A stretch of 64,000 nucleotides of DNA from Escherichia coli (GTDB lineage Bacteria; Pseudomonadota; Gammaproteobacteria; Enterobacterales; Enterobacteriaceae), in NCBI RefSeq assembly GCF_044647545.1, contig NZ_CP172818.1, one strand, 5' to 3'. A program made the translations under genes and the position numbers. Within the stretch, counting starts at the first letter, position 1. Every line of letters starts with the position of its first letter. The notes under the pieces are model-generated. The model did no database searches. It saw only the letters and a list, made by a program, of their open reading frames with translations, and was not told where the DNA came from. Positions 29,124-46,622 of the stretch are shown piece by piece.

Positions 29124-29864
29124 TTAAAAACGCCAGCTCACCCCGGTGACAAAGGTAAAACTCTCATTACGATCAATCATCGGGCTGTCGGTAATCTCTT
29201 CCGGCAGCTCGCTGTATCCTGCGCTCGCCATCAATACGACGTGCTCTCCTATCGGGTATTTTGCCGTCAGGCTGACATAGGGCACCCAGGCATCCTGCGC
29301 GGAATAACTTGCCAGACCGCTACGACGGGACTCACTCTCTGAAATGCCATAGTAATAGTCACTGAAATTCTCGTCATAATAGAGAACGCCCAGCGCAGGT
29401 GTCAGCGACAGACGACCTATCTGCATTTTGTGGAATACCGATAGCTCCCCCACCCAGCCGTTGCTGTTATCCAGAACGTCCGCAGCTGCAGAGGCTTTCA
29501 CGGTTCCCCAACGCTCGTGGTGATACCAGGCAACCCCCGCCATAGCCGTACTATCACGCTTATCAAGCTGTTGCATGGCATAATCGTCATTATCGGTAGG
29601 GTCAAATTCCAGCGGCATCCAGGATGCGGTCAGGCTAAGTTCATTTTTTTCACTTTGCGACAGAATAAAACCTAACGTGGTCTGACGAACATAAAAAGTA
29701 TCACCTTCATAACTAATCAGCGGAATTGCCTTCGTATTTTCATTATAACCGCGATAAGGCGATTCATTATAAGCCGCACCAGCACCAATGGATAATTCAG
29801 AAGCAGTTGCGCTTGCCATAAAAGGCAACGCAAATAACGCCACAATATTGCGATTAATTAACAT
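29124..29864 (-). CDS. yiaT: Outer membrane protein (MipA/OmpV family)
   Basis: 246-aa ORF with signal peptide, beta-strand-like alternation and C-terminal F. Confidence 0.88.
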   Translation of the reverse strand: MLINRNIVALFALPFMASATASELSIGAGAAYNESPYRGYNENTKAIPLISYEGDTFYVRQTTLGFILSQSEKNELSLTASWMPLEFDPTDNDDYAMQQLDKRDSTAMAGVAWYHHERWGTVKASAAADVLDNSNGWVGELSVFHKMQIGRLSLTPALGVLYYDENFSDYYYGISESESRRSGLASYSAQDAWVPYVSLTAKYPIGEHVVLMASAGYSELPEEITDSPMIDRNESFTFVTGVSWRF

Positions 29865-29987
29865 GTCCGGTATTCCATTTTAAAATAAGATAAAAAAGAG
29901 TCGGCATAATAATGCTTACAATTTCTCCGGTGCAAGATTCATATTTATATAGTAATATATAAAATTATATATAATTGGGCTGTTGCG

Positions 29988-30962
29988 ATGACAAAATTAC
30001 AACTTAAGTACCGGGAGTTAAAAATTATCTCGGTAATCGCTGCCAGTGAAAATATCAGCCATGCCGCGACTGTACTTGGCATCGCACAGGCCAACGTCAG
30101 CAAATATCTTGCTGATTTTGAATCAAAAGTGGGTTTAAAAGTCTTTGACCGAACCACCCGGCAGCTGATGCTCACACCTTTTGGCACCGCGCTGTTACCG
30201 TACATCAACGACATGCTGGACAGAAACGAGCAACTTAATAATTTTATTGCAGATTATAAGCATGAGAAACGTGGTCGGGTCACCATCTACGCCCCAACCG
30301 GCATAATTACCTATTTATCCAAACATGTAATCGATAAAATTAAAGATATCGGTGATATCACCTTATCGCTAAAAACCTGCAATCTTGAGCGTAATGCCTT
30401 TTATGAAGGCGTCGAATTTCCTGATGATTGTGATGTTTTAATCAGCTACGCTCCACCAAAAGATGAATCGCTGGTTGCCAGTTTTATTACCCAATATGCC
30501 GTAACCGCTTATGCCAGCCAGCGCTATCTTGAGAAACATCCCATTAGCCGTCCTGACGAACTCGAACATCACTCCTGTATTTTGATCGACTCGATGATGA
30601 TCGACGACGCGAATATCTGGCGCTTCAACGTCGCCGGGAGTAAAGAGGTGCGGGATTATCGCGTGAAGGGAAATTACGTTTGCGACAACACGCAATCTGC
30701 GCTGGAGCTGGCACGAAATCACCTGGGGATTGTGTTTGCGCCAGACAAAAGTGTGCAGAGCGACCTGCAAGACGGCACGCTGGTGCCCTGCTTTCAGCAA
30801 CCCTATGAATGGTGGCTGGATCTGGTGGCTATCTTCCGTAAACGGGAATACCAGCCCTGGCGGGTCCAGTATGTGCTGGATGAAATGCTGCGTGAAATTC
30901 GCCACCAGCTTGCTCAGTCGCAGCAACTGCGGCCTGAACAAGCGGCGGAAAGCGAAGATTAA
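29988..30962 (+). CDS. yiaU: LysR-family transcriptional regulator
   Basis: 324-aa ORF with N-terminal LysR HTH; divergent-convergent with yiaT/yiaV. Confidence 0.9.
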
Positions 30963-32095
30963 TGATCGAGATAAAGGTAATGCACCCAGCTGGTCATGCG
31001 TAATAGCACTTTGCGCATCACCGAGACATGGCTGAAATGATCAGAGTAAACCGCCACCTGGGCGTAAATACCGTCTGGTAAAGCGCTCAAATCAGTGTGC
31101 TCATCCAGTTCAATGGTCGCGATAACGCCATCTGAACCCGGCGCTGTGTTTAACGTCTGTAAGGTGCCGGTCGACTGATAAGCTCCGCCGGGAACGGCTG
31201 GACTAATGGCTGCCAGCTTACCGCTGAATACCTTACCTGGCAGAGCATTAAACACCACTTCCGCATCGTCGCCAGGAGCCAGTCGCAGCAAGGAGTTCTG
31301 ACGGAACTGCGCCACGATTTGTCGTTTCTGATCGGGTATAAACACCATCACCGGACGTAGCGGCAGCGACGCGGCATAGGTACCCGGACGAATCAGTACC
31401 TGGGTCACATAACCATCGCTCGGCGCACGCACTATCGTCTGCTCAAGGTTATATTTTGCTTCCGCGAGCTGTGCTTTCAGGCTGGCGATTTGAGAATGTT
31501 CACCCAACACCAGGCTATCCAGCTGGCTCTGGATCTGTTTTTGTTCCGCCGCCGATGACTTCACGGAGGCTTCCTGCGCCAGATAATTTTGCCGCGCCAC
31601 ATCGATATCGCGTTCTGAAAACGGGTTTACTTTCGCCTGGCTGCCACGTGCGTAACGCTGATACTCTTTAGCGAATTTATCCCGCGTGGCCTTTGCCTGC
31701 TGAGTATTCGCCGCCATCTCATCTAACTCTGCGCCCAACGCCCGCTGTTTATGTTCTGCGGTAACGATATCCGCCATCAGCCGATCCACCCGCGCCTGAT
31801 AACGCGTCGGGTCCAGTCGAAATAGCACCTCACCTTTTTTAATCAGCGTATTTTTCTTATCCGTCACTTCAATCACCACACCAGTCACCTGTGGGACAAC
31901 AGGAATAGAAATAACCGCTTTTTGCGCTTTAAAGGTATACGGATGGTTATAGTTCATTAACAGAATTAGACCGCTGACAATAAATATGCCACCCAGGGCC
32001 GCTGTGGGAATGGTCCATTTATTTACAGGAATTTTGAAGATCTTAAACATTGCCCATGCAAAAGCCACATAGGTCAAAATAATCAGTAAATCCAT
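30959..32095 (-). CDS. yiaV: HlyD-family membrane fusion protein
   Basis: 378-aa ORF, N-terminal TM, coiled-coil middle; paralog of yibH. Confidence 0.9.
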
Positions 32096-32100
32096 AAGTA

Positions 32101-32326
32101 TTACTCGGCAGAAGAGGTCTTGATGTCGGCGAGCTGTTTCTCCAGCCCGGCAATACGCTGTTGTAGTTGCACAACGCCGGAGGAGTCATGGTTTTGCATT
32201 CCCCATCCCCGCTCCGGGCGGTAAAGCGTGGCCCAAATCCACAAAATGGCCAGATAACATGCAGCGTAAAAAGACTCACCCAACCAGCAACATGAATGGC
32301 GTCGGCATGAGGATGATTACGTTTTG
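32101..32326 (-). pseudogene. yiaW: yiaW (DUF3302 small membrane protein), C-terminal part, separated from its 5' part by IS1
   Basis: Translation ...[46 protein letters not shown] matches the YibI paralog; reading frame runs into the IS1 left end. Confidence 0.8.
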
Positions 32327-32351
32327 GTGATGCTGCCAACTTACTGATTTA

Positions 32352-32657
32352 GTGTATGATGGTGTTTTTGAGGTGCTCCAGTGGCTTCTGTTTCTATCAG
32401 CTGTCCCTCCTGTTCAGCTACTTGACGGGGTGGTGCGTAACGGCAAAAGCACCGCCGGACATCAGCGTTATCTCTGCTCTCACTGCCGTAAAACATGGCA
32501 ACTGCAGTTCACTTACACCGCTTCTCAACCCGGTACGCACCAGAAAATCATTGATATGGCCATGAATGGCGTTGGATGCCGGGCAACCGCCCGCATTATG
32601 GGCGTTGGCCTCAACGCGATTTTACGTCACTTAAAAAACTCAGGCCGCAGTCGGTAA
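32352..32657 (+). CDS. insA: IS1 InsA-like ORF (body in frame with ...[23 protein letters not shown]...; N-terminus out of frame with the canonical GTG start at 32381)
   Basis: ORF-track translation; canonical-looking start GTG 32381 [14 protein letters not shown] reaches TGA at 32423. Confidence 0.7.
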
Positions 32658-33079
32658 CCTCGCGCATACAGCCGGGCAGTGACGTCATCGTCTGCGCGGA
32701 AATGGACGAACAGTGGGGCTATGTCGGGGCTAAATCGCGCCAGCGCTGGCTGTTTTACGCGTATGACAGGCTCCGGAAGACGGTTGTTGCGCACGTATTC
32801 GGTGAACGCACTATGGCGACGCTGGGGCGTCTTATGAGCCTGCTGTCACCCTTTGACGTGGTGATATGGATGACGGATGGCTGGCCGCTGTATGAATCCC
32901 GCCTGAAGGGAAAGCTGCACGTAATCAGCAAGCGATATACGCAGCGAATTGAGCGGCATAACCTGAATCTGAGGCAGCACCTGGCACGGCTGGGACGGAA
33001 GTCGCTGTCGTTCTCAAAATCGGTGGAGCTGCATGACAAAGTCATCGGGCATTATCTGAACATAAAACACTATCAATAA
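32576..33079 (+). CDS. insB: IS1 InsB transposase frame
   Basis: 167-aa ORF ...[21 protein letters not shown]...[48 protein letters not shown]. Confidence 0.85.
32631..32641 (+). promoter_or_regulatory. IS1 programmed -1 ribosomal frameshift motif (A6C) joining insA and insB
   Basis: ttaaaaaactc at the insA/insB junction. Confidence 0.6.
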
Positions 33080-33094
33080 GTTGGAGTCATTACC

Positions 33095-33204
33095 TTACGT
33101 TTTTTAGCAATCAGGTAGGGAATATCATGTAAAATAATAATCCCATAGAATATCACCAGAAATACAAAAATAAGCACTCCCAGTGCAAAATAGTCCAGGA
33201 ACAT
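33095..33204 (-). pseudogene. yiaW: yiaW 5' part ([37 protein letters not shown]...), separated from the 3' part by IS1
   Basis: Reverse complement of 33104-33204 encodes the N-terminus homologous to YibI; joining the two parts minus one TSD copy restores a 109-codon frame. Confidence 0.8.
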
Positions 33205-33317
33205 ATTTCCCTCAAAGAATATAAAAAAGAACAATTAACGCATATTATGAAATGCCATGATGCAGTGCAACTTCCTTATTTATATAACGACATATTGTTT
33301 TTTATATACTTTCTGAA

Positions 33318-33530
33318 ATGTGCTGTCTGGTTTTTCAACAGGACGAGGTTTATCATATTGAAATAGTGGAACTATTGGCCAAACTAATGAATAACTCCAG
33401 TAAAACATCCACAGTACAGATTAAGCGTATTAAACCTTCAATTATCTACCGTTTATTGCTGATTGGCCTCGGATCACCAATGGTGATTTACGGCCTGGTT
33501 CGCCCGCTAACCATCGAAACGCGAGATTAA
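33318..33530 (+). CDS. Hypothetical small ORF with a C-terminal hydrophobic segment (possible small membrane protein)
   Basis: 70-aa ORF; internal Met gives a 47-aa peptide MNNSSKTSTVQIKRIKPSIIYRLLLIGLGSPMVIYGLV...; no recognisable homology. Confidence 0.2.
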   Translation: MCCLVFQQDEVYHIEIVELLAKLMNNSSKTSTVQIKRIKPSIIYRLLLIGLGSPMVIYGLVRPLTIETRD

Positions 33531-33638
33531 ACGCCCGGCAATACACGCCGGGCAGCTTCTGCCAGAAACGCACTTCTGTTGGCGTAGTCTGGGTTATTGC
33601 GCACGTAGGTTTAAAACGTAAATTGTAACAACGTGCGC

Positions 33639-33735
33639 TTTGTTTATGCCGGATGCGGCGTGTACCTTATCCGGCCTACGGTCAGGTTCCCGTAGGCATG
33701 ATAAGACGCGTAAGCGTCGCATCAGGCAATGAATA
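33639..33735. repeat. REP elements downstream of aldB
   Basis: gccggatgcggcgtgtaccttatccggcctacgg and gacgcgtaagcgtcgcatcaggc palindromes. Confidence 0.5.
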
Positions 33736-33758
33736 CCCAATGCGACCAGCTTCTTACA

Positions 33759-35297
33759 TCAGAACAGCCCCAACGGTTTATCCGAGTAGCTCACCAGCAG
33801 GCACTTGGTTTGCTGGTAATGCTCAAGCATCATCTTATGGGTTTCGCGTCCGATGCCCGACTGTTTGTAGCCGCCAAACGCCGCATGTGCCGGGTAAGCG
33901 TGATAACAGTTGGTCCACACGCGCCCGGCCTGAATGCCGCGCCCCATCTTATAGGCCAGATTACCGTTGCGGCTCCAGACACCCGCGCCCAGGCCATATT
34001 GCGTGTCGTTCGCCAGCTCCAGCGCCTCGTCCATCGTTTTGAAGGTGGTTACCGCCAGCACCGGACCAAAAATCTCCTCCTGGAACACGCGCATATTATT
34101 CTGACCAAACAAAATCGTCGGTTCGAGGTAGTAACCGTCTTTCAGTTCGCCTTCCAGCAGCTTGCGCCGCCCGCCGGTGAGCACGTCTGCGCCCTCTTTT
34201 TTACCAATATCAATGTAGTTGAGGATGGTTTCCAGTTGCCCGTGAGAAACCTGCGCCCCCATTTGCGTCACGCTGTCGAGCGGGTTACCGCTGCGAATGC
34301 TTTCGACACGGCGGATGGCGCGTTCCATAAAGCGTTCGTAGATAGACTCCTGCACTAAAGCACGGCTTGGACAGGTGCAAACTTCGCCCTGGTTAAAGGC
34401 AAACAGTGCAAAGCCTTCCAGCGCTTTATCGAAAAAGGCATCTTCTTCATCCATCACATCAGCAAAGAAGATATTTGGGGATTTGCCGCCCAGCTCCAGC
34501 GTCACCGGAATAATGTTTTGCGTGGCGTACTGCATAATTTGTTGGCCCACTTCCGTTGAGCCGGTAAACGCCACTTTGGCGATGCGTTTCGAGGTCGCCA
34601 GATATTCGCCAATTTCTCCGCCCGCACCGTTGACCACGTTCACCACGCCCGGCGGCAGTAAATCACCGACGATTTCCATTAGCAGCAGTACTGAGAGCGG
34701 GGTAAGACGTGCGGGTTTCAGCACCACACAGTTGCCCGCCGCCAGCGCGGGAGCCATTTTCCAGCTCGCCATCAGCAGCGGGAAGTTCCACGGAATAATC
34801 TGCCCCACCACGCCTAACGGTTCGTGGAAGTGATAAGCCACAGTTTCGCTATCCACTTCACTAATACCGCCTTCCTGCGCCCGAATACACGAGGCAAAAT
34901 AGCGAAAATGGTCAATCGCCAGCGGCACATCAGCAGCACTGGTTTCGCGAATGGGTTTGCCGTTATCCCAGGTTTCAGCGGTCGCTAACAGTTCGAGGTT
35001 CTGCTCCATCCGATCGGCAATCTTAAACAGAATCGCCGCGCGATCCTGCACCGAAGTATGCGCCCATTTATCTTTCACTTTGTGCGCAGCATCCAGCGCC
35101 AGATCGATGTCTCGTTTGCCCGAAGACGCCACTTCGCACAGCAGCTGTCCGGTCACCGGCGTCAGGTTCTGGTAATACTCGCCGTCGGCAGGGGCTACCC
35201 ATTCGCCGCCAATAAAGTTGTCGTAGCGGGCTTTTAACTTGAGGGGGAAACCATACTCGCCGGGCTTAATCTGTGCTGAAGGGGGATTATTGGTCAT
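33759..35297 (-). CDS. aldB: Aldehyde dehydrogenase B
   Basis: ORF 33759..35435; start set at [17 protein letters not shown] giving 512 aa. Confidence 0.93.
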
Positions 35298-35461
35298 GAT
35301 CGTCTCCTTGCGGTGTGAGGTATAACAAGGGTAGACGTGACTGGCGAAATCTTCGCCAGTCGATAACAGCTTTACGACGGCTATCACGAATTTACGGGCA
35401 AGGGTTACAGAGATAGTTGAAAAAGCGGCTGACAACTCGCCAGCCGTTGCGGGAATGATGA

Positions 35462-36613
35462 TTACATTGCGGCGCGATAAATCGCCACAATTTCTTCGTG
35501 AGTTGCCTGGATCGGGTTAGTAAAGCCACAGGCATCTTTCAGGGCATTAGTCGCCAGTACCGCGAAATCTTCTTCTTTCACGTTCAGGTCACGCAGGCCT
35601 GCCGGGATATCCACTTTCTTCGCCAGTTCACGGATGGCGTTAATGCAGGCTTCAGCACCTTCCGCGTCGTTTTTACCAGTCACGTTCACGCCCATTGCAG
35701 CGGCACAGTCACGCAGACGTGCTGCAGCGACTTTGCTATTGAATACCTGAACGTGTGGCAGCAGAACAGCATTACATACACCGTGTGGCAGGTTGTAGAA
35801 ACCGCCCAGCTGGTGCGCCATCGCATGAACATAACCCAGAGAAGCATTATTGAACGCCATACCGGCGAGGAACTGGGCATAAGCCATTGCTTCACGCGCT
35901 TTAGCATTGCTGCCATCTTCAACGGCTAACGGCAGATTTTCGGCAATCATGGTCACCGCTTTCAGTGCGCAAGCGTCAGTGATCGGCGTGGCGGCAATAG
36001 AAACATACGCTTCGATAGCGTGCGTTAAGGCATCCATACCCGTTGCGGCGGTCAGTGACTTCGGCATACCGATCATCAGAGAGGAGTCATTGACAGAAAG
36101 CAACGGAGTTACATGTTTATCAACAATCGCCATTTTGATATGACGCGCTTCGTCAGTGATGATGCAGAAACGGGTCATTTCAGAGGCCGTACCCGCCGTG
36201 GTATTGATGGCGATCATCGGCAGCTGCGGTTTTGCAGAGCGGTCAACGCCTTCGTAATCGCGAATATCGCCGCCATTGGCTGCCACCAGCGCAATACCTT
36301 TTGCGCAGTCGTGCGGAGAACCACCGCCTAAGGAGATCACGCTATCGCAATTATTTTCTTTAAGTAATTTCAAACCTGCGGCGACGTTTTCCGTGGTGGG
36401 GTTAGGTTGGGTGCCATCATAAATAACGCTAAAAATATTGCGTTCTTCCAGTGCTTTTTGCACATCACCCGCCATACCCAATTTCGTTAACATATTGTCG
36501 GTGACAATTAAGGTACGGGTAAATCCATAATCTGCCATCATATTCATTGCATCATTCAATGAATCAGCACCAATAACATTCACGGAAGGAATAAAAAAGG
36601 TTGAAGCTGCCAT
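35462..36613 (-). CDS. yiaY: Iron-containing alcohol dehydrogenase
   Basis: 383-aa ORF with Fe-ADH motifs ([16 protein letters not shown]). Confidence 0.9.
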
Positions 36614-36803
36614 AACACACTCCTGAAAGTGTAAAAAAGGGCGGGCAGCTTACTGAGGATTTTCATTTGAAAATATGATCAACATTACCGTTTATTAAAA
36701 TATTTTTAATAAAAAGCACGTTACATTCATCAAATAACGTGCCTTCTTAACATTAATAAGAAATTTTGTATTAATTCATATTTATTATGAATTAATCATT
36801 TCC

Positions 36804-40970: not shown

Positions 40971-43900
40971 ATGAGCGGAAAACCGGCGGCGCGTCAGGGC
41001 GACATGACGCAGTATGGCGGTAGCATTGTCCAGGGTTCAGCCGGGGTACGTATTGGTGCCCCCACCGGCGTGGCCTGTTCGGTGTGCCCCGGCGGAGTAA
41101 CGTCCGGCCATCCGGTCAATCCGCTGCTCGGTGCAAAGGTCCTTCCCGGCGAGACAGACATCGCCCTGCCCGGCCCGCTGCCGTTCATTCTCTCCCGCAC
41201 CTACAGCAGTTACCGGACAAAAACGCCCGCGCCGGTGGGGAGCCTCGGCCCCGGCTGGAAAATGCCTGCGGATATCCGCTTACAGCTGCGCGATAACACA
41301 CTGATACTCAGTGATAACGGCGGCAGAAGCCTGTATTTTGAGCACCTGTTTCCCGGTGAGGACGGTTACAGCCGCAGCGAGTCACTCTGGCTGGTGCGCG
41401 GCGGCGTGGCGAAACTGGATGAAGGTCACCGGCTGGCCGCACTCTGGCAGGCGCTGCCGGAAGAGCTTCGCCTGAGTCCGCATCGTTATCTGGCGACGAA
41501 CAGTCCACAGGGGCCGTGGTGGGTACTCGGCTGGTGTGAGCGGGTGCCGGAGGCGGATGAGGTGCTGCCTGCGCCGCTGCCGCCGTACCGGGTACTGACC
41601 GGGCTGGTGGACCGCTTCGGGCGCACACAGACGTTCCACCGTGAGGCTGGCGGCGAATTCAGCGGCGAAATCACCGGCGTGACGGATGGCGCAGGCCGTC
41701 ACTTCCGGCTGGTACTGACCACGCAGGCGCTGCGGGCAGAAGAGGCCCGGCAGAAGGCCATTTCCGGCGGGACGGAACCGTCCGCTTTTCCTGATACCCT
41801 GCCGGACTACACGGAATATGGCCGGGACAACGGTATCCGTCTGTCTGCCGTGTGGCTGACACACGACCCTGAATACCCGGAGAATTTACCTGCCGCGCCG
41901 CTGGTGCGCTATGGCTGGACGCCACGCGGCGAACTGGCGGTGGTGTATGACCGCAGCAATACACAGGTGCGCAGCTTTACTTACGATGATAAATACCGGG
42001 GCCGGATGGTGGCGCACCGTCACACGGGCCGGCCGGAAATCCGTTACCGTTACGACAGTGACGGGCGGGTGACAGAACAGCTAAACCCGGCAGGCTTAAG
42101 CTACACGTATCAGTATGAGAAAGACCGCATCACCATCACCGACAGCCTGGACCGCCGTGAAGTCCTGCATACCGCAGGCGAAGGCGGCCTGAAGCGGGTG
42201 GTGAAAAAGGAACACGCGGACGGCAGCGTCACGCAGAGTCAGTTTGACGCGGTGGGCAGGCTTAAGACACAGACGGATGCCGCAGGCCGGACAACAGAAT
42301 ACAGCCCGGATGTGGTGACGGGCCTCATCACGCGCATCACCACGCCGGATGGCAGGGCATCGGCGTTTTACTATAACCACCACAGCCAGTTAACGTCAGC
42401 CACCGGGCCTGACGGGCTGGAAATACGCCGGGAATATGATGAATCCGGCCGTCTGATTCAGGAAACCGCCCCTGACGGCGATATCACCCGCTACCGTTAT
42501 GATAATCCACACAGTGACTTCCCCTGCGCAACGGAAGATGCCACCGGCAGCCGGAAAACCATGACGTGGAGCCGTTACGGTCAGTTGCTGAGCTTCACCG
42601 ACTGTTCCGGCTACCAGACCCGTTATGACCATGACCGCTTCGGGCAGATGACGGCGGTGCACCGCGAGGAAGGCCTGAGCCAGTGCCGCGCATACGACAG
42701 CCGTGGACAGTTAATTGCCGTGAAAGACACGCAGGGCCATGAAACGCGGTATGAATACAACATCGCCGGTGACCTGACCGCCGTCATTGCCCCGGACGGC
42801 AGCAGAAACGGGACACAGTACGATGCGTGGGGAAAGGCCATCCGTACCACGCAGGGCGGGCTGACCCGCAGTATGGAATACGATGCTGCAGGACGGGTCA
42901 TCCGCCTGACAAACGAAAACGGCAGCCACACCACCTTCCGTTACGATGTACTCGACCGGCTGATACAGGAAACCGGCTTTGACGGCCGCACACAGCGTTA
43001 CCACCACGACCTGACCGGCAAACTTATCCGCAGCGAGGATGAGGGGCTGGTCACCCACTGGCACTATGACGAAGCAGACCGCATCACGCAGCGAACGGTG
43101 AATGGTGAAACCGCAGAACAGTGGCGGTACGACGAACGCGGCTGGCTGACACAAATCAGCCATCTCAGCGAAGGGCACCGGGTGACGGTGCATTACGGGT
43201 ATGATGAGAAAGGCCGCCTGACCGGTGAGCGCCAGACGGTGCATCATCCGCAGACGGAAGCACTGCTCTGGCAGCATGAGACCAGACATGCGTACAACGC
43301 GCAGGGGCTGGCGAACCGCTGTATACCGGACAACCTGCCCGCCGTGGAATGGCTGACTTATGGCAGTGGTTACCTGGCAGGGATGAAACTCGGCGACACA
43401 CCGCTGGTGGAGTACACCCGCGACCGCCTGCACCGGGAAACGCTGCGCAGCTTCGGCCGTTATGAACTCACCACCGCTTATACCCCTGCCGGGCAGTTAC
43501 AGAGCCAGCACCTGAACAGCCTGCAGTATGACCGCGATTACACCTGGAACGACAACGGCGAACTCATTCGCATCAGCAGCCCGCGCCAGACCCGGAGTTA
43601 CAGCTACAGCGACTCCGGCAGGCTGACCGGCGTTCACACCACCGCAGCGAACCTGGATATCCGCATCCCGTATGCCACGGACCCGGCAGGTAACCGCCTG
43701 CCCGACCCGGAGCTGCACCCGGACAGCACCCTCAGCATGTGGCCGGATAACCGTATCGCCCGTGACGCGCACTATCTTTACCGGTATGACCGTCACGGCA
43801 GGCTGACGGAGAAAACCGACCTCATCCCGGAAGGGGTTATCCGCACGGATGATGAGCGGACTCACCGGTACCATTACGACAGCCGGCACCGGCTGGTGCA

Positions 43901-44750
43901 CTACACGCGGACACAATATGCAGAGCCGCTGGTCGAAAGTCGCTATCTTTACGACCCGCTGGGCCGCAGGGTGGCAAAACGGGTGTGGCGGCGTGAACGG
44001 GACCTGACGGGCTGGATGTCGCTGTCACGGAAACCGGAAGTGACCTGGTACGGCTGGGACGGCGACCGCCTGACCACGATACAGAACGACAGAACCCGCA
44101 TCCAGACGGTTTATCAGCCGGGGAGCTTCACACCACTCATCAGGGTCGAAACCGCCACCGGTGAGCAGGCGAAAACGCAGCGCCGCAGCCTGGCGGATGC
44201 GCTTCAGCAGTCCGGCGGCGAAGACGGTGGCAGTGTGGTGTTCCCGCCGGTGCTGGTGCAGATGCTCGACCGGCTGGAAAGTGAAATCCTTACTGACCGG
44301 GTGAGTGAGGAAAGCCGCCGCTGGCTGGCATCGTGCGGCCTGACGGTGGCGCAGATGCAAAACCAGATGGACCCGGTGTACACGCCGGCGCGAAAAATCC
44401 ACCTGTACCACTGCGACCATCGCGGCCTGCCGCTGGCGCTTGTCAGCACGGAAGGGGCAACAGAATGGTGCGCAGAATACGATGAGTGGGGCAACCTGCT
44501 GAATGAAGAGAACCCGCACCAGCTGCAACAGCTTATCCGCCTGCCGGGTCAGCAGTATGATGAGGAGTCCGGCCTGTATTACAACCGCCACCGCTATTAT
44601 GACCCGCTGCAGGGGCGGTATATCACTCAGGATCCGATTGGGCTGAAGGGGGGATGGAATTTTTATCAGTATCCGTTGAATCCGATATCAGACATCGAGC
44701 CCCCTGGGTTTATCTATGTGGGAGGATGCAAAATCGGGGGCATGTACTAA
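40971..44750 (+). CDS. rhsA: Rhs-family polymorphic toxin core protein: N-terminal PAAR motif, YD repeats, Rhs core; very short 12-residue tail after an EPPGF motif
   Basis: 1259-aa ORF; N-terminus [26 protein letters not shown] (PAAR); many YD/YxYD repeats; ends ...[39 protein letters not shown]. Confidence 0.92.
44238..44686 (+). repeat. Rhs core 3'-end repeat, copy A (inside rhsA)
   Basis: About 450 bp near-identical to 46623-47069 at a constant offset of about 2384 bp. Confidence 0.9.
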
Positions 44751-45754
44751 TGGTCTTTGCGGCATATCAGCTGTGATGAGAGGTGCATAAGTTTTTCATA
44801 GACCGCATATGACGCCTTAATAACAATAAAATTAAAATATATTTTCAATAAAATCAATAGCCAAATAAAATAAATAAATAAATTTTCCCTGCACCTAGAA
44901 CGTGGAGAAAGTTAGTACATACTATGGATGCAATAGCATTGACATAATGGTGGGACGAATATTTTCACTTCGACTAATGTGGTAGATATCAGATTTGGAC
45001 GAAATATTTTAAGCAAAGATGAAAATAATTAAAATAAACAACGAATAAATACCACCCCATTAATAAACAATAGATAACCACGGGAAGGAAATAACAAACG
45101 GAAAAGGATCCGATGCCAGAGTTATCGGTAATATTAAAAAAAAAAATATAAATAAAATAAATAAATTTTATTTAGCACTCCCATTTTTTTTACACAACAT
45201 GGCCATAATAATAATTTTAAAATAATAATGACGGGAAAGAGAGAAAGAAGGTAAACTGTAAAAGGATTACAAAAATTTGGTCTACAAATACAGGTTATAG
45301 TAAAAAAATATTTTTTAGAATTTATTGTATCTTTTTTTTTTTACAACAACACAGGTCGCAGTGTAATTACAGAGATATTAAAATAATGCTCAAATTTATG
45401 AAGCAGTGAGGCAGAAGAATATACATATAAACGCTTCATTAAAACAAGTGGGTAATTTGGTTAAAAATAAACTAACATTGAATTACAATATATGTTAAAA
45501 TCAGGCAACCAAAAAGAAAAAATATAAAATATGATTAACAACAAGTCTTGTTGAAGGCACCATTCACTCAGACCAAATTGCTGGTGGGGTTTTTATTAGA
45601 AAATAGGCAAAAATGATGGGGTAATTCTGAATTTTGGCCACGGAAAATAAGTATGTAAGGATAATCAAACATCGTGTGCGCTGATGGCAGAGTAGGTGGA
45701 GGACTCCAGACAGTCAAACGATAAAAAAAGATAGCCTTTATGGAGGCTCCTGCA
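44751..45754. other. Extremely AT-rich block without ORFs of 60 aa or more between rhsA and yibA; contains A11 (45136-45146) and T11 (45332-45342) homopolymers
   Basis: Visibly low GC and low complexity; ORF track shows no ORF on either strand. Confidence 0.8.
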
Positions 45755-46597
45755 ATGTCAAATACATACCAGAAAAGAAAGGCAAGTAAAGAGTATGGTT
45801 TATATAATCAATGTAAGAAACTAAATGATGATGAATTATTTCGCTTACTTGATGATCACAATTCCTTGAAAAGGATTTCATCTGCCAGAGTATTACAGTT
45901 AAGAGGTGGGCAAGACGCTGTTAGATTGGTAATTGAGTTCTGCTCTGATAAAAATTATATCCGTAGAGATATCGGAGCATTTATACTCGGGCAAATAAAA
46001 ATTTGCAAAAAATGCGAAGATAATGTGTTTAATATTTTGAACAATATGGCATTGAATGATAAGAGCGCTTGCGTTCGAGCTACGGCAATCGAGTCAACGG
46101 CTCAGCGATGCAAGAAAAACCCAATTTATTCACCTAAAATAGTAGAACAATCTCAAATTACTGCTTTTGATAAATCGACTAATGTCAGACGTGCTACAGC
46201 ATTTGCTATTTCTGTTATCAATGATAAAGCAACAATTCCACTATTGATTAATCTGTTAAAAGATCCAAATGGAGATGTCAGAAACTGGGCCGCATTTGCA
46301 ATAAATATCAATAAATATGATAATAGTGATATTAGGGATTGTTTTGTGGAGATGCTTCAGGATAAAAATGAGGAAGTCCGTATTGAAGCAATAATCGGAC
46401 TTTCCTACAGAAAAGATAAAAGGGTTTTATCTGTTTTATGCGATGAGTTAAAAAAAAATACTGTTTATGATGATATCATTGAAGCTGCGGGTGAATTAGG
46501 TGATAAAACGCTACTTCCTGTTTTAGATACTATGTTGTACAAGTTTGATGACAATGAAATTATAACTTCCGCTATTGATAAGCTGAAGCGTTCATAG
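45755..46597 (+). CDS. yibA: HEAT-repeat protein YibA
   Basis: ORF 45740..46597; start set at MSNTYQKRKASKEYGLYNQ giving 280 aa; repeated helical-repeat pattern. Confidence 0.85.
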   Translation: MSNTYQKRKASKEYGLYNQCKKLNDDELFRLLDDHNSLKRISSARVLQLRGGQDAVRLVIEFCSDKNYIRRDIGAFILGQIKICKKCEDNVFNILNNMALNDKSACVRATAIESTAQRCKKNPIYSPKIVEQSQITAFDKSTNVRRATAFAISVINDKATIPLLINLLKDPNGDVRNWAAFAININKYDNSDIRDCFVEMLQDKNEEVRIEAIIGLSYRKDKRVLSVLCDELKKNTVYDDIIEAAGELGDKTLLPVLDTMLYKFDDNEIITSAIDKLKRS

Positions 46598-46622
46598 CGT
46601 GAGTTGCCTATGCACAGTGGGG

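Follow-up and report, generated by a model that had tools for sequence, protein, structure and literature searches.

Insertion sequences of the IS1 family are ~768 bp long and are bounded by a left (IRL, ~30 bp) and a right (IRR, ~28 bp) inverted repeat, starting with GGTGATGCTGCC... / GGTAATGACTCC...; a -1 frameshift at an A6C motif, which joins insA to insB', yields the InsAB' transposase, and immobile IS1 copies were shown experimentally to be mobilised in trans (PMC12903888). The target duplications of IS1 mostly measure 9 bp, within a range of 8–10; lengths of 6, 9 and 10 bp were reported in one study (PMC3861542). Inactivation of a gene by IS1 with formation of a 9-bp duplication is textbook biology, and IS1 alleles of yiaW itself have already been published. 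An IS1 at nt 263 of the 324-nt yiaW rose in three of six macrophage-exposed populations of the E. coli K-12 strain MC4100 and not in the controls (PMC3861542), and no phagosome phenotype was found for a yiaW::aph mutant (PMC5495878).

The locus described here is located in a 64-kb stretch of E. coli DNA (64,000 nucleotides, hereafter the window). It shares the gene, the element and the 9-bp duplication with the yiaW::IS1 alleles of MC4100 (Miskinyte et al. 2013, PMC3861542; Proenca et al. 2017, PMC5495878). In contrast to these alleles, which lie at nt 263/324 of the gene in a laboratory line, the insertion in the window is found at nt 102–110 in a natural isolate and is accompanied by extra lesions in the gene as well as in the IS. 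The element has the same terminal inverted repeats, insA / A6C / insB' layout and 9-bp duplication as the known IS1 of E. coli and Shigella (IS1A/IS1R type), but the latter is 768 bp long and autonomous, whereas the window copy is 769 bp long and, owing to a private extra T, predicted to be non-autonomous. It is very probable that we are dealing with a non-K-12 E. coli in which an IS1A-type insertion knocked out yiaW, both the IS1 and yiaW carry further lesions, and yiaV is probably silenced. Coordinates of the features are collected in Table 1.

Table 1. Features of the yiaW/IS1 locus in window coordinates.
Feature	Position	Strand	Remarks
IS1A-like insertion sequence	32326..33094	+	769 bp; both canonical ends found once each
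IRL, ~30 bp	32326..32355	+	carries promoter-like CTGCCA-16-TATGAT at 32333-32360
Truncated insA	32381..32425	+	GTG start, 14 codons, then TGA; stop created by 1-nt T insertion
insB' open frame	32576..33079	+	167 codons from first ATG; Ser-to-Arg at 32770 (T to G)
A6C programmed -1 frameshift motif TTAAAAAAC	32631..32639	+	intact; read directly from sequence
IRR, ~28 bp	33067..33094	+	canonical right end
Target-site duplication, left copy TTACGTTTT	32317..32325	.	abuts IS1 left end
Target-site duplication, right copy TTACGTTTT	33095..33103	.	yiaW nt 102-110
yiaW 5' fragment (truncated ORF)	33073..33204	-	YiaW residues 1-36 plus 7 IS1-encoded residues (KVMTPTY), 43 aa
yiaW 3' fragment	32101..32325	-	T5-to-T4 frameshift, +CGG, AT-to-GA near stop
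yiaV, HlyD-family membrane-fusion-like protein	30959..32095	-	intact; downstream gene of yiaWV operon
Candidate native yiaWV promoter TGGCCA-18-TATGAT	33352..33381	-	AT-rich upstream region; consensus match only
Weak candidate IS1/flank hybrid outward promoter TTGGCA-18-CATCCT	32310..32339	-	-35 in IRL, -10 in yiaW; 8/12 positions, below scan threshold

The element is the sole IS, and hence the single IS1 copy, in the window. Its left end reads GGTGATGCTGCCAACTTACTGAT... at 32326 and its right end ...ATCAATAAGTTGGAGTCATTACC at 33094; these form imperfect terminal inverted repeats with 15 of the 23 first positions complementary, and the IRL has no differences from the other IS1 copies compared. 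The genes insA and insB' follow each other on the + strand, i.e. in the orientation opposite to that of yiaW and yiaV (- strand). In the alignment to 13 E. coli IS1 copies, seven copies from RefSeq belonging to the IS1A family differ from the window copy at only 5–6 positions of 768 (99.3% identity), so the element is of IS1A type. Its length, ends, identity, target duplication and insA / A6C / insB' layout all place it in the IS1 family. The substitutions at 32468, 32588, 32616 and 32770 are counted relative to what we take to be the IS1 sequence. Those at 32468 and 32616 occur in none of the 13 compared copies, and that at 32588 in two of them; these changes may have arisen in place or have come with a variant donor copy. 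In a collection of 15 billion proteins, the exact 167-aa InsB' sequence is recorded for a single contig.

The additional base pair of the element (769 vs 768 bp) is accounted for by an extra T at 32421/32422, which converts ACTGAC to ACTTGAC. The copy from strain MSB1_9I taken for comparison yields an intact InsA of 91 aa. None of the 13 aligned IS1 copies, each 768 bp long, has the extra T. A 60-nt query centred on the inserted base was run against 5,426 complete E. coli genomes, where it hit at least 59,279 IS1 places; none of them matched exactly, and the best reached 59/60. The extra T thus seems to be private to this copy or this genome. Since insA terminates upstream of the A6C motif, the motif, being beyond the reach of insA, is useless in this copy, and the element is predicted to lack both products, the InsA repressor and the InsAB' transposase. 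The loss of the insA frame that opens at GTG removes autonomy and leaves the assignment to the IS1 family unaffected. As the ends are intact, the element could be mobile, but only if another IS1 supplies transposase in trans. The original prediction described a complete 768-bp IS1 inside yiaW; the full-length element in yiaW was indeed found, while its length and its coding integrity have to be corrected (769 bp, with a frameshift that brings a stop after codon 14 of insA).

The 9-bp direct repeat expected from the earlier reading is intact at both ends of the element. TTACGTTTT occurs exactly twice in 64 kb, once abutting each IS1 end, and a chance match at the second end has a probability of 4^-9, about 4e-6. 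Both copies map to one site in K-12 (positions 2320–2328 of the locus L004). Because the repeats abut both ends and the flanks map to the same nine K-12 bases, the structure is best read as a simple IS1 transposition with a 9-bp duplication and not as an assembly join or a recombination between two copies. A composite transposon or a product of IS1–IS1 recombination was likewise considered and rejected, since the window contains one copy only and the repeats on its two sides agree. Elsewhere at the yiaW locus IS1 duplications are 9 or 8 bp long.

That the interrupted gene is yiaW, as had been proposed, is confirmed by the alignment of both flanks to the K-12 gene: 33204–33095 is 97% identical to nt 1–110 of yiaW and 32325–32101 matches nt 102–324, with the break point inside codon 37. 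The gene lies upstream of yiaV and next to aldB, and orthologues in the same position carry PF11742 (DUF3302). The suggested homology to yibI also holds, the repaired YiaW being 74% identical in amino acids to the YibI of the window (E = 5e-61). The uninterrupted 109-codon frame that removal of IS1 was expected to restore is, however, not there. Excision of IS1 together with one repeat leaves 326 nt instead of 327, which is not a multiple of 3, and no intact frame of ~107–108 codons is obtained. The missing nucleotide corresponds to a deletion in a run of five T (T5 to T4; A-run 32243–32246 on the + strand) at codon ~61 of yiaW. In addition, CGG is inserted in frame at about 32177–32181, next to a change of AT to GA. 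The first 180 nt of the restored gene are identical to the intact allele of strain 2017.06.04CC; comparison with K-12 yiaW gives the same picture of indels with more substitutions. Read from its ATG, the restored frame would run for 127 codons into yiaV, with residues 62–127 out of the YiaW frame. The frameshift may have arisen before or after the arrival of IS1.

Neither the repaired 108-aa nor the frameshifted 127-aa product of yiaW was found among 15 billion proteins. For the 3' fragment there is no match above 97.8% in the 5,426 complete E. coli genomes, and the best full-length matches span 274 nt against 276 nt of the query, which fits a five-T run and the lack of CGG in these genomes. 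Judged by its sequence, yiaW appears to be a pseudogene twice over, through the IS1 and through the frameshift. The proposed inactivation of the gene by IS1 is borne out as well: only a stub of 43 aa is encoded, which keeps the first transmembrane helix. This stub is present in RefSeq as WP_400165086.1 ("DUF3302 domain-containing protein [Escherichia coli]") and is known from one contig only. The window contains a second pair with the same two-gene arrangement of DUF3302 and HlyD-like proteins, yibI-yibH (51881–52243 and 50742–51878), in which yibH is about 70% identical to yiaV at the DNA level. Unlike yiaWV, the yibIH pair is intact and may therefore substitute for the lost genes.

The downstream gene, yiaV, starts with an ATG 5 nt from the stop codon of yiaW, is 99.8% identical to K-12 and encodes exactly the protein of a very common allele. 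For the yiaWV pair a single standard promoter-like site was found, located upstream of yiaW. As 778 bp of untranslated antisense DNA lie between this candidate promoter and yiaV, it seems probable, with moderate confidence, that yiaV is largely silenced by polarity. IS1 is classically described as polar in both orientations. The promoter-like site within the IRL (32333–32360, + strand) is directed away from yiaV, and the standard promoter scan detected none facing yiaV from the IS1 end. The intact state of yiaV would also be compatible with a gene that is still expressed, with an insertion of young age or with a later import of a tract identical to K-12. In K-12 that had evolved with macrophages and carried IS1 at a different position of yiaW, transcripts of the yiaW region went up and not down; the promoter behind the raised signal could not be named by the authors (PMC5495878).

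The yiaW region was found to be hit by IS1 repeatedly. Our search of the complete genomes retrieved 13 in which one place covered 80% or more of the query as well as further genomes with IS1 abutting yiaW. It detects IS1 in the orientation of the query only, so that these counts are lower bounds; because the search is blind to the opposite orientation, the orientation shared by the retrieved elements is an ascertainment artefact. In the 13 other E. coli genomes mapped, IS1 junctions occupy 12 distinct sites within about 560 bp. Strains E70, BDSF8-3, B25FEP and ECSD228 carry simple insertions in the yiaW region with 9-bp duplications, and MSB1_9I carries one with 8 bp. In D72, T16R, ET881, PEC1003, PSS-04 and 2017.06.04CC the other side of IS1 is yiaL, yiaM or yiaN, there is no target duplication, and the genes in between are therefore missing; we interpret these six as adjacent deletions mediated by IS1, with end points in yiaW or yiaV. 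Three different IS1 isoforms landed at one and the same site, GGGAATATC (position 2343 of the K-12 locus L004): one event is a simple insertion, and in the other two the site marks the end of a deletion adjacent to IS1 that extends from yiaM or yiaL. The insertion in the window falls in the same ~560-bp region as the other natural events, but none of the 13 shares its junction and all 13 elements are 768 bp long. The closest case is D72, where the IS1 end lies 2 bp from the window junction and a deletion is found on the other side. In window coordinates, the recurrent target, i.e. the AT-rich 5' part of yiaW and its upstream spacer, corresponds to 33050–33450.

The sequence of events that fits these observations best would be the following. 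In a divergent, poorly sampled lineage an IS1A-type element would have transposed into codon 37 of yiaW, at the edge of an AT-rich stretch, leaving the usual 9-bp target duplication. YiaW, a small inner-membrane protein with DUF3302, would have been cut to the 43-residue stub, and yiaV would have been parted from its promoter by the 778 bp of untranslated antisense DNA and probably silenced by transcriptional polarity. The locus would now be a decaying remnant, with a private stop in insA as well as a -1 frameshift and a 3-nt insertion in the 3' fragment of yiaW. One may argue instead that an intact 768-bp IS1 recently entered an otherwise intact yiaW and that both single-T changes are sequencing or assembly errors. 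Both lesions are indeed single-T length changes, one of them within a homopolymer, assemblies are difficult to polish at IS copies, and yiaV is still perfect. We nevertheless regard errors as an unlikely explanation. The 46 other CDS of the window, which total 46,842 bp and include 157 homopolymers of five or more bases, contain no frame-disrupting indels relative to K-12, 45 of them being gapless and ysaB having one in-frame 9-nt gap, which suggests that both 1-nt indels are probably real. Against such a clean background of 46.8 kb and 157 runs, two errors within 1.1 kb would be a striking coincidence. Moreover, the change in insA is a conversion of a single T to TT and not a miscounted homopolymer, and the 3-nt insertion and the dinucleotide change in yiaW are atypical of errors.

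A different fate of yiaV can be envisaged, in which the left end of IS1 acts as a mobile promoter so that yiaV is uncoupled from yiaW rather than silenced. The hybrid sequence TTGGCA-18-CATCCT spans the junction between IRL and the flank and faces yiaV, yiaV is intact, and hybrid promoters at IS1 ends were reportedly documented by Prentki et al. in 1986. This hybrid, however, agrees at only 8 of 12 positions, has a poor -10 element and fails the standard scan; the transposase promoter of IS1 faces away from yiaV, and yiaV would lose its translational coupling to yiaW. We therefore hold such activation to be highly improbable and polarity to be the better reading of the locus. Finally, the insertion may be viewed as an adaptive, selected knock-out of yiaWV (e.g. 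providing resistance to phagocytic predators) and not as a neutral hit in a preferred target. The parallel rise of IS1 insertions in yiaW in three of six macrophage-exposed populations speaks for selection, as do at least 13 natural genomes with IS1 insertions or IS1-adjacent deletions ending in or next to yiaW. Yet the yiaW::aph mutant lacked a phagosome phenotype, yiaW is undisrupted in more than 99% of genomes, and a single site hit three times by three isoforms looks like a target hot spot. The region is also AT-rich, with 28–34% GC in the 5' part of yiaW and the upstream spacer. IS1 prefers AT-rich DNA. The excess over uniform IS1 placement, roughly estimated from the counts, is only about six-fold and could be explained by this preference, which leaves selection as a minority possibility. 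That this particular insertion was selected appears improbable to us, and we give equally little credence to the wider proposal that natural E. coli lose yiaWV convergently under selection and that the 5' third of yiaW, where independent events end in at least 13 genomes besides this one, is more than an AT-rich landing pad. If true, such convergent loss would parallel the alleles from macrophage-exposed populations and point to a role of YiaWV in encounters with phagocytes. That yiaW is targeted time and again offers a mildly interesting clue to the function of the uncharacterised YiaWV.

The intact duplication had been taken as a sign of a relatively recent insertion. At ~2% lineage divergence, 0.36 changes are expected in the 18 bp of the two copies, which would stay unchanged ~70% of the time; for this reason the duplication is of little use for dating and has almost no dating power. 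If anything, the disabling mutations, which affect both the IS1 and yiaW, point to a resident, decaying insertion, and the argument for a recent event does not hold. Accelerated decay of yiaW as judged by substitution counts was considered too and rejected: the 97.8% of the 3' fragment equals the background of the lineage (97.8% for aldB–yiaY). Because the level of substitutions is that of the background, only the indels are informative on the decay of yiaW.

The genes of the window are 94–100% identical to those of MG1655. Over xylA–yiaW the best complete genomes reach 98.9% (phylogroup D/F-type, e.g. IAI39, CE10 and SMS-3-5-type strains), and over aldB–yiaY the best complete genome reaches 97.8% only. 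The K-12 background implied by the original prediction is incompatible with these values, which suggest a divergent, poorly sampled lineage. In agreement with that prediction, the insertion is absent from MG1655, whose 324-nt yiaW is intact and free of IS1, but for this background MG1655 is not the comparison that matters. Shigella, suggested as a source by the IS1 and the pseudogenes, was considered and rejected: the 64 kb contain one IS only, 46 other genes are intact, and RefSeq assigns the 43-aa product to E. coli. Over 33205–36700 and 8000–32325 of the window, the distance to every one of the 5,426 complete E. coli genomes in RefSeq is unusually large. The relatives of the IAI39, CE10 and SMS-3-5 type carry a ~4.2-kb GH127/MFS insert that the window is without.

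Near-identity to MG1655 is confined to a tract of 2.7 kb comprising yiaT, yiaU and most of yiaV. This ~2.7-kb tract (about 29150–31990) has 0–1 differences to MG1655, and its flanks are diverged by 3–8%. It looks like a recombination import. The right edge of the tract lies 100–300 bp from the IS1 insertion. The import may post-date the insertion, and this may explain why an intact yiaV is found beside a decayed IS1 and yiaW.

The insertion had also been put forward as a strain marker. The exact left junction has no single-piece match in the 5,426 complete E. coli genomes and no exact match in the GTDB species representatives or the JGI metagenome contigs; for the right junction, the nearest match in the same 5,426 genomes is D72, with an offset of 2 bp. 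As a marker, the insertion is specific at the level of the junction sequence only: since yiaW is often hit by IS1 at neighbouring sites, a size shift in PCR alone is insufficient. The value of the locus lies mainly in strain typing and in the corrections made here, namely that the IS1 is dead, the pseudogene is doubly broken, the background is non-K-12 and the duplication is of no use for judging age.

Several other features of the window may be mentioned. A small ORF with a hydrophobic core (33318–33530, + strand) is situated between yiaW and aldB; in other genomes RefSeq lists it as a hypothetical protein of 47 aa (WP_001066080.1 or WP_001341754.1), and in MG1655 it is unannotated. The Rfam scan gave no match at the yiaW/IS1 locus. 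Its only match at gathering score in the window is the sok antitoxin RNA (RF01794, 69.5 bits) at 246–342 on the - strand, which is the position of sokA in K-12. In the region 40971–50300 the rhsA ORF (1259 aa) ends ~35 residues after the PxxxxDPxGL core motif and is followed by a yibA-like HEAT-repeat gene and orphan rhs C-terminal fragments (46639–47148 and 49285–49758); the tip of rhsA and the downstream genes differ from those of K-12.
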